From Neodothiora populina (taxonomy: Eukaryota), in contig NW_027191408.1 of assembly GCF_041146345.1 (NCBI RefSeq), positions 744,001 through 808,000 of the forward strand: a stretch of 64,000 nt of DNA, written 5' to 3'. Position numbers and translations under genes: made by a program. The notes under the pieces were generated by a model. It was not told where the DNA came from. It saw nothing but the letters and a program-made list of their open reading frames with translations, and ran no database searches. Positions within the stretch are counted from its first letter, which is position 1. The number at the start of each line of letters is the position of its first letter. Below are positions 34,521 to 37,915 of this stretch, one piece after another.

Positions 34521-35087
34521 ATGGCAGACAGACTGACCCAGCTACAAGACTGCTACGACGACGTAAGCGCCCCTCCCAAGTGAATGCCCCATCCACGAAC
34601 ACTAACACCCCCGACCCAGCTCCAAACACAAATGTTCGCCTGCATAGACTACATCCGAACGCGGCACCAATACGAGGCCATCGAAGGCCAACCAGACATG
34701 AACCCGCACTCCTCCACTTCAGCGAACCCCTCCGCGCTCACCAACGGCGGCACGGCGAATGGAGGCGACGCCCACCAGCAGAACCAGAACGGACAACAGC
34801 CACAAAACGACTCGGCAGACGGCCTCACGCCCGACCCGCCCGAAGTCTTCAAATCCGCGCTCACAGAGCTCGCGCGCGACCTGGTCATCAAAGAGCAGCA
34901 GATCGAGTACATCATCAGCGTGCTGCCGGGGATCGGCAACAGCGAGGCGGATCAGGATGCGAGGATCCGCGCGCTGCAGACGGAGCTCAGAGAGGCTGAT
35001 GCGCTGAGGACGTTGGCGATGCAGGAACGAGAGCAGATGTTGGGACTCATTGGGGATCTGGCAGCGACGTGTAAGAGGGTTTATTGA
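34521..35087 (+). CDS. MED21: Mediator subunit Med21 (Srb7)
   Basis: [10 protein letters not shown] start, intron 34563-34619, [22 protein letters not shown]. Confidence 0.93.
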
Positions 35088-35999: not shown

Positions 36000-36791
36000 T
36001 TATTTCTTGGTGGGGTACTTCTTGAAGAAGTATCTGTGCGACATTTATTAGACTCATGCGCAAGAGAGGATATTCGAAAATAGCAAAACTGTCTTGCAAC
36101 CGACAAAGCACTTACTGGCTTGTGTAAAAGTCGGCGACGGCAAAGAGACCGACAACACCAGCCCAAGCGCCAGCGACCTTCCAGGTGAGCTCGCCGACAG
36201 AGTACTTTCTGTAAGCACCGTAGCCGAGGAGACCACCGAGGACAGTGATGCCGATGGCGTTGGACAGAACAACAGGGTTCTCCTTGTTCTTGTCGGCCTT
36301 TGCGGCGAGCTTCTTGGCTTGCTCCTTTGCGCGCTCGGCCTCCTGCTTGAGCTTTTCTTCCTGCTCACGTGCCTCGGCCTCGAGCTCGTGCTCGCGCTGT
36401 TGCGTCTCGGTCTTGATCTCTTGGGATTCAAAGTCCGAGGGCACCGAAGAGATGTGAGGGCTGTCTACGTCGATGAGCGAGTGCACCTCGTCGTCGGTGT
36501 GCTTGATCTCTGGGGGAGCGGGGGCGCGCCTGTTTGGTCGTGTGGTTAGCTTCGTGTTGGCTGTCTACTTGCACGTCTACAAGATAGTTTCCGAATGCGC
36601 CGTGAGATTGCCATCGATTAGAACGGATGTGACAGGTCTGAAAGCTGCTGGAGAGGACCCGGGGCTTGGGGGTGTTTACTTACTTCTGCGCAAGATTGTC
36701 AGTATAGCTTCACTGTATAGATCAAAGACGAATTACTCACCTCCTCCTCGCTCTGCTCAGGACCACTTGCGGCAACGGAAGCGTAGGACAT
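36000..36791 (-). CDS. Mitochondrial outer membrane protein OM14-like
   Basis: Exons 36791-36741, 36685-36684 (2 nt), 36529-36116, 36033-36000. Protein MSYASVAASGPEQSEEEKRAPAPPE...SLIDVDSPHISSVPSDF...NPVVLSN, two hydrophobic segments, ending YFFKKYPTKK. Confidence 0.8.
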
Positions 36792-37915
36792 GGTGGGTAC
36801 TGGTGACGAGTGGTTCTCCGTCTCGCTGTTGGGACGTTGAAGAAGAGAGGATGGGTCTGCCACGGTGAATAGAGTGTTTAGTATCAAGTAACCACAACGT
36901 TTAGCTGCGGATAAACTTGATGATGAGAAATTCCAGAAAAAGGAAAGATAAGGGTGGGGGGAAAGGGAAGCGTGGAAAGAGTCGGGATCGGGTTGTAGCT
37001 AAGGTAAGGTACTGTAAGGTAGGCAGGTGCAGTAATGGTACAGTAGCAGAAACAGCAGTAGCAGCGGTTATCAGTACAAAGGTAGCAAGCGCGGATTAAC
37101 GGTTTAACTTCTTGCGCAAACGAAACTCACATGCAAATCTGAACCTGAACCCGAATCTGACGACAAGCAGGGAATGCCGCTCCAATTGCCTTCTGCTGCT
37201 GATGCTTGGCTTATGTCATTGGCTAATCATCCAATATTCAGGGCACTTTACGGATCTGATCTCATTTGTTAATTGCTACAAGTACTGGGTCCACTCTGAA
37301 TTCTATGACAGGCTGGGTAGCGGACAGTAGCAATACACTGGGAGCCATGTAAAGCAAATACCGTGGGTCCTCTGTAGCAAGAAGCCTTATGTATACCTTA
37401 TCCATACAAATGGGCGAATAGAGGTAACCTTGTGTGCCAACATCCAGAGCTGTGTGAATAATTCTTCCATCATCATTTCGTATCTAAAGCCTTCGCTTTG
37501 CTTCTTTGTTTCCTTTCATGGAGCTCGATCCTGTCCACACAACCTCATATTGAGGCGCTGGTCCCAAATGTACAGTACCGTCCATAAACAGCCGCTGCTC
37601 TATGACTCGCTTGCCCACTGATCGCACAAGCACCTATACTCAGCGTCATGCTCTGAGCTATTCATGATACACCAATCCATCACTTTGGGATCTGTCAAAT
37701 GCCCTATCAGAGATCGGAGAAACAGACTCACATTAGAGCCAGCGCACTACATCTCTAGATATGACCATAGCATACTCTTCGCTCTATAGATACATAAAAA
37801 GGGGTGGGAGAGTGTGGTACTGCTTTTCTTTTTTGTCTCAGCCGTATAGTCCTTGTGTGTGCCCTTTATGCTGCGATAGTGTACAGAGCCCTATTTTACA
37901 ATCAAGACAAACCGC

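Follow-up and report, generated by a model that had tools for sequence, protein, structure and literature searches.

Can two nucleotides form a coding exon of their own? A gene on the minus strand of a 64,000-nt stretch of DNA, hereafter the window, raises this question. A first-pass annotation had read there a first exon ending in phase 0, a 55-nt intron, the bare dinucleotide AA and a 154-nt intron, and this layout is present letter for letter (Table 1). We conclude that AA is very probably a coding microexon of 2 nt that is constitutively spliced in and has an ordinary U2 intron on either side. The gene is single-copy and encodes an OM14_C-like protein of a Dothideales fungus close to Neodothiora populina. 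The exon is an ordinary constitutive microexon and not a new kind, since exons of 1-2 nt have already been published in fungi.

Table 1. Features of the gene, from the candidate upstream start to the stop codon (positions are those of the window)
Feature	Position	Strand	Remarks
Candidate near-cognate start GTG	36861..36863	minus	A at -3, G at +4; would open an N-terminally extended isoform
In-frame stop-free extension with L[QH]RPN	36792..36863	minus	24 codons, putatively coding
Exon 1, coding from main ATG	36741..36791	minus	17 codons, ends in phase 0 (GAG GAG GAG)
Intron 1	36686..36740	minus	55 nt, GTGAGT...CAG
Branch motif ACTGAC of intron 1	36698..36703	minus	13 nt from branch A to CAG
2-nt microexon AA	36684..36685	minus	Lys codon together with first base of exon 3
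Overlapping tandem acceptor AAG	36683..36685	minus	latent [D1,2] stwintron route, predicted from sequence
Intron 2	36530..36683	minus	154 nt, GTAAGT...CAG, phase 2
Branch motif GCTAAC of intron 2	36545..36550	minus	
Exon 3	36116..36529	minus	acidic/charged stretch, then hydrophobic C-terminal region with weak OM14_C match; no Met
Intron 3	36034..36115	minus	82 nt; missing from relatives' spliced contigs
Exon 4, coding part up to stop codon	36000..36033	minus	

The gene and its reading frame

With AA included, the four-exon coding sequence spans 501 nt (166 codons), contains no internal stop and has Met at position 1 only. When AA is skipped, the frame runs into a stop after 50 codons, 312 nt ahead of the last junction, as expected of the frame-required exon that had been proposed. 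The N-terminus encoded by exon 1 is conserved in homologs, and the absence of Met from exon 3 rules out translation from a start downstream of the two introns. Confusion with a paralog was ruled out by the single match that the gene gives in its own 24-Mb genome. The nearest named protein, that of Neodothiora populina (Dothideales), matches at 96% over exon 3.

The gene had also been labelled OM14-like. At the level of the family it reflects a weak C-terminal profile match: PF17304 (OM14_C) was matched at E ≤ 0.01 by 27 of the 38 aligned family sequences (best 1.2e-6), and an Atlas lead gives the link with high confidence. For the present copy the label is weak: the score of 15.9 bits (E = 0.019), taken from exon 3 alone without the 10 residues of exon 4, lies below the Pfam gathering cut-off of 26.1. 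About 900 nt from the stop codon, the next downstream ORF on the same strand (34584-35087, minus) resembles what we take to be a Mediator subunit (Med21-like).

The two-base exon is conserved and not expected by chance

Dinucleotide shuffles of the intron interiors in the window gave the arrangement branch-YAG-NN-GT(A/G) in 9 of 2000 trials, and in 0 of 2000 when the donor had to be GTRAGT. Relatives were collected by a scan of metagenome contigs, in which 101 were confirmed; the 80 that were listed were used, and three of these (L045, L058 and L071), whose contigs lack exon 1, were left out, leaving 77 sequences to be classed. L045 still shows TAG-GC-GT. All 77 fitted one of four clean classes, with none unexplained: both introns around a 2-nt exon (53), intron 2 only (9), intron 1 only (5) and neither intron (10). 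Six exon-3 anchors were placed by hand from tblastn positions. Where two candidate YAG-NN-GT sites were present (nine sequences) the first was used, except in L079, for which we picked by hand the one lying 13 nt from the branch.

Collapsing near-identical introns reduced the 54 two-intron sequences, the window included, to 41 non-redundant loci. Every one of these 41 carries branch-YAG-NN-GT(A/G) with a spacing of two bases, and none carries the motif at lengths 0, 1, 3, 4 or 5. At length 6 it was found in 12 loci, with the GT lying inside the donor hexamer and out of frame, and at lengths 7 and 9 it was found once each; other microexon lengths were rejected on these counts. Against the 41 loci observed, the same test scored 0.26 on average over 200 shuffles and never more than 3. 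In 54/54 two-intron sequences the dinucleotide is preceded by an intact YAG acceptor and followed by an intact GT donor; the microexon lies between two complete introns, each with a donor, a branch site and an acceptor of its own. An alignment of orthologs showed conservation of both the ag-NN-gt arrangement and the E-E-x-R-A-P peptide, as the first-pass annotation had anticipated.

The two bases themselves occur in three states among the 41 loci, GC (26), AA (14) and AC (1), and two-intron loci with AA fall in two separate clades. The split codon covaries across intron 2: a purine follows AA in 14/14 loci and a pyrimidine follows GC in 25/26, with a Fisher value of 6e-10 that is overstated because kin share states. 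The AC state, which encodes Thr, was seen in L036:445-610, whose exon 1 has one codon fewer than that of most loci. The second donor reads GTRAGT in 22/26 GC loci versus 4/14 AA loci; weak second donors (GTACTA, GTACAT, GTAGAC, GTAGGC, GTAGGT) were found in L006, L008, L010, L011, L077, L079 and L080. In the clade of L040, L071 and L074-L076, charged repeats of 11 residues form an expanded tandem array in exon 3.

Intron 1 is short throughout the 41 loci (47-84 nt, median 54 nt; none above 100 nt). Intron 2 ranges from 51 to 670 nt (median 105 nt) and exceeds 100 nt in 21 of the 41, and intron 3 exceeds 100 nt in 5 of the 33 loci in which it was measured (8 of 41 unresolved). Long introns, of 159 and 178 nt, occur in two of the five intron-1-only loci. 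The tight length of intron 1 as a sign of splicing order is suggestive only.

The two bases are kept in spliced relatives

Of the 10 loci with neither intron, nine are without intron 3 as well and behave like transcripts (spliced contigs). Two of them could be matched exactly to genomic counterparts, both pairs being GC-type Pleosporales. Spliced L015 equals in-silico spliced genomic L013 at 558/558 nt with the dinucleotide and shows 396 mismatches without it; spliced L025 equals L031 at 561/561 nt with the dinucleotide and shows 387 mismatches without it. Both pairs are exact only with NN, confirming that spliced relatives include the two bases. For the AA type, the spliced contig L012 carries AA and is placed in the Aureobasidium clade, beside an Aureobasidium protein. 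No other spliced contig comes from a two-intron AA clade. The intron state of L012 is inferred from relatives, and its closest genomic locus, L010, matches at 79%.

A skipped or codon-less form was present in 0/9 spliced contigs of relatives, which show majority isoforms only. Since assembled contigs hide minor isoforms, there is room for a rare skipped form. None of these contigs uses an alternative acceptor or donor that restores the frame without the two bases. Among proteins outside the three NCBI lists with a readable N-terminus, exactly one residue occupies the site in 62 of 63, and zero residues in none. Nine rows scored as zero-residue in one protein comparison read E/Q-A-A-A-P, which by eye is the same spacing.

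Judged from its relatives, this organism would include AA in the same way, and the microexon is very likely real in this genome too. One run, X1 (probably DNA, share 0.12), yielded a single 216-nt contig at 36524-36739 with no joints and no differences. This contig covers almost exactly the two introns and not the exons, and we do not count it as evidence.

Probable splicing by intron definition, and its alternatives

How might an exon of two bases be retained? Intron definition applies in Pezizomycotina (PMC5587772), and under it each intron would be recognised through its own donor, branch site and acceptor, so that the tiny exon would not itself have to be recognised. The first YAG past the branch of the short intron 1 would be used and two bases would stay in the mRNA, forming two thirds of a Lys codon here and of an Ala codon in most relatives. 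On steric grounds, two spliceosomes likely act one after the other. The first-pass annotation had gone further and supposed an ordered removal of the introns; an obligatory order finds no support, as each intron is complete and relatives have genes with either intron alone. The microexon appears to be kept for frame and not for regulation, since either or both introns have been lost in some lineages without change in protein spacing.

CAG-AA-G contains, in tandem, a second AG acceptor, which had escaped the earlier reading. Through it the two introns could be handled as a [D1,2]/[A2,3] stwintron, giving as main product an in-frame mRNA one Lys shorter and no microexon at all. Either intron 1 would be spliced to the tandem AAG, with the donor rebuilt from the G at the end of exon 1, or intron 2 would leave first and create the AAG acceptor. 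The earlier statement that the frame requires AA must be narrowed to this extent: skipping breaks the frame, but the stwintron route open to the AA form keeps it. The window possesses both G residues that define a stwintron according to PMC5587772 (one before the 5'-most donor, one after the 3'-most acceptor), and the inner AG overlaps the inner GT, also as defined, in the window and in 9/14 AA loci. Both paths are available to 9 of the 14 non-redundant AA loci and one path to the other 5, and AAG would sit 16 nt past the branch A, the same distance as the acceptor of intron 2. The route is impossible, however, in 26/26 GC loci and in the AC locus, and in every two-intron locus a CAG or TAG stands ahead of the dinucleotide, so that no splice site needs to be rebuilt. 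A stwintron leaves no intervening base in the mRNA, whereas all spliced contigs of relatives keep the codon, L012 its Lys codon among them, and no homologous protein without the residue was found. In the clade that lacks intron 1, AA is fused to exon 1, as precise loss at YAG predicts. The Lys-less product was never seen, so this is at most a minor path and very unlikely to be the main one. Judging by their letters, AA lineages would be one mutation away from a true [D1,2]/[A2,3] stwintron.

It had also been proposed that skipping acts as an NMD-coupled switch, the microexon being a regulated cassette whose omission yields a frameshifted, degraded mRNA and so tunes protein level. The geometry fits, given where skipping places the stop relative to the last junction. 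Weak second donors (GTACTA, GTACAT and GTAGAC among them) are present in some AA loci, and a regulated 20-nt microexon is described for Trichoderma virens Xlr2 (PMC11121469). But none of the nine spliced contigs skips the microexon, and skipping would have to bypass a short, well-formed intron 1 that never exceeds 84 nt. The second donor of the window is the consensus GTAAGT. Moreover, the 15/68 genomic loci without one or both introns would make such a switch dispensable, and the lineages concerned keep the protein spacing. A regulatory cassette is highly improbable. AA loci with weak second donors are the best places to seek either skipping or the stwintron route.

Barely credible is a single long intron ending at a downstream in-frame acceptor, for although acceptors of this sort are chosen in deposited models (in that of Neodothiora, P0001, EEE runs on to HTDD) and in-frame AG sites lie 38, 44 and 59 nt past the second branch A, these are GAG or AAG, stand far from the branch, delete R-A-P residues conserved in homologs and are never used by relatives' spliced contigs, and the deposited models disagree among themselves. 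Single-intron solutions in general comprise 14 in-frame donor/acceptor pairs, and were rejected because they need non-consensus donors or misplaced acceptors, located upstream of the branch or 36-59 nt beyond it.

Sister groups have probably lost opposite introns

Both introns coexist in 53/68 genomic loci. We placed the loci on an unrooted tree of exon-3 proteins (99 rows, 149 columns), in which many forks are weak. Two-intron loci are found in Pleosporales, Dothideales and other Dothideomycetes, and in a clade nearest to proteins of Myotisia and Arachnomyces. These Eurotiomycetes proteins are 45-55% identical to members of that clade. The arrangement is thus common to Dothideomycetes and Eurotiomycete-like loci.

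The loci with intron 1 only are scattered. L041, L042 and L065 group with Leotiomycetes, Coleophoma among them, L043 stands alone and L078 lies beside Teratosphaeria (100/89). L042, with intron 1 only at the microexon site, also lacks intron 3. A single clade for the five was rejected (p-AU 1e-35), the group having been defined by intron state after the tree had been seen. The nine intron-2-only loci form one clade (100/99), sister to the group that holds L078 (99/81), and both are nested in the AA clade (99/93). L028, on a 39.8-kb contig, is genomic, has kept intron 3 and is devoid of both flanking introns; nested among two-intron Pleosporales, it is a gene that lost both. The fewest changes on the tree are two for intron 1, four for intron 2 and four for the dinucleotide.

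Because they are nested, L078, the intron-2-only clade and L028 are best read as probable losses. This reading applies to the nested cases only, the state of the Leotiomycete loci and of L043 being either loss or ancestral on an unrooted tree. Opposite introns would then have been lost, each precisely, by two groups that are sisters in the Capnodiales/Mycosphaerellales region of the tree. Compared alone, L078 and its sister clade would mimic an intron shifted by 2 nt. We lean slightly towards regarding the gene as a living intermediate of such an apparent shift, in which the two-intron state survives. A fully spliced cDNA could hardly remove one of two introns lying 2 nt apart, which points to partly spliced templates or to precise DNA deletion; if partly spliced templates were involved, either intron can leave first. 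The ortholog series, with both, either or no intron, makes this route to apparent intron sliding testable, and provides a compact substrate, in fungi, on which to study spliceosomes at work on introns separated by two bases.

A candidate GTG-started extension of the same protein

Upstream of the main ATG, the peptide of the window's extension contains L-Q-R-P-N. The motif L[QH]RPN was found in 20/78 sequences (the window, L001, L003-L005, L009-L012, L044, L047, L049, L050, L052, L054, L056, L060-L062 and L078), and in 20/20 the extension is in frame and open, with a length of 24-99 codons. The motif is confined to the Dothideomycetidae clade of the tree, but not all members of that clade have it. 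The opening codon is GTG in 12 of the 20 loci, ATG in 7, which is the codon of Aureobasidium-like loci, and CTG in 1, with A at -3 in all of them. In all 20 motif loci the stretch from the candidate start to the main ATG is free of intervening ATG codons in every frame. An in-frame Met is present further upstream in genomic L054, L056 and L061, but not in the spliced relatives L044 and L062.

Two forms, of 190 and 166 residues, would probably arise by leaky scanning from a near-cognate start, and both need the microexon. An upstream intron in place of the GTG start, suggested by a CAG after GTG in most loci, was rejected, since spliced L044 and L062 align continuously with their genomic relatives and L062 has no CAG. 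The gene thus probably has a second, GUG-initiated isoform with a short conserved motif, which lies outside the deposited Neodothiora model.

Most deposited models of the first search lack the conserved spacing

That annotation usually misses such an exon, as the first-pass annotation had said, is borne out here: conserved spacing at the site is found in only 10/47 NCBI models from the first homolog search, one of which has Val and may be an intron read-through. It is found in 23/23 Leotiomycete models, from a group whose sampled loci have one intron. These counts left out three NCBI rows without organism name and one non-Leotiomycete row, and tying the model errors to the microexon presupposes that those genomes have the same introns as their neighbours on the tree. 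On that assumption the frame-critical 2-nt exon would be misannotated in most NCBI models of that first search. By eye, 11/17 Capnodiales/Mycosphaerellales models have the conserved spacing (4/17 with a pattern that was too narrow). We base no claim on these 17, as their intron states were not seen.

Comparison with known systems

The protein itself invites comparison with yeast Om14, reported to be a mitochondrial outer-membrane receptor for NAC and the ribosome (PMC4268710). The likeness is a weak C-terminal profile match to OM14_C (PF17304) within the family, with the present copy under the curated cut-off.

Conserved non-AUG N-terminal extensions are known in fungi (PMC5487733). The candidate extension shares with that of Neurospora cpc-1, also from a filamentous fungus, a conserved near-cognate codon ahead of the main AUG. 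It differs in belonging to another gene, in its length of 24-99 codons, in the ATG of Aureobasidium-like loci and in being known from sequence.

For the microexon, the closest parallel is the 1-nt exon of Fusarium CYP621A (PMC12940212), likewise an ultra-small, frame-required coding exon between canonical introns in Pezizomycotina. Annotation had missed it, ortholog comparison brought it to light, and an intronless homolog and RNA data supported it. Here the exon has 2 nt, the gene is unrelated, the arrangement spans at least two classes rather than one genus, and three dinucleotide states and all four states of intron presence and absence are represented. Exons of the same size are numerous in Coprinopsis cinerea, with 57 exons of 2 nt in 50 genes, and omission of internal exons of ≤3 nt creates a stop in 63/89 such models (PMC12230235). 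Coprinopsis is a basidiomycete, and the work is a single-genome annotation, whose section on these exons offers no ortholog series or intron-loss analysis.

The 1-nt microexons of plant APC11 and VPS55 (PMC8831610) are, like the present one, conserved, N-terminal, frame-required and unannotated, and with the loss of both introns they too become part of a larger exon. What the passages on them describe is loss of both introns or their retention, not reciprocal single loss in sister groups. A literature search over the main texts of open PMC papers and bioRxiv found nothing on the microexon of this gene or on reciprocal loss around a 2-nt exon; supplements of the Coprinopsis and stwintron papers could list this gene or similar cases.

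Near intron pairs, that is orthologs with single introns a few bases apart, look much like the single-intron states found here. The method built on them (PMC2891723) takes the presence of both in one gene to be very unlikely, whereas here they coexist in the majority of genomic loci. The stwintron described for a 1-nt shift (PMC5587772) likewise consists of two abutting intron units, shares both G residues with the AA form, and leaves discordant introns and an unchanged mRNA when either unit is lost. According to that paper, an intron cannot travel further than an adjacent position by this mechanism. In the present gene no splice site need be interrupted, two exonic bases are kept and the discordance is 2 nt. 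If the gene is indeed an intermediate of an apparent intron shift, it carries the published 1-nt stwintron route on to 2 nt and goes against the assumption on which near intron pairs rest.
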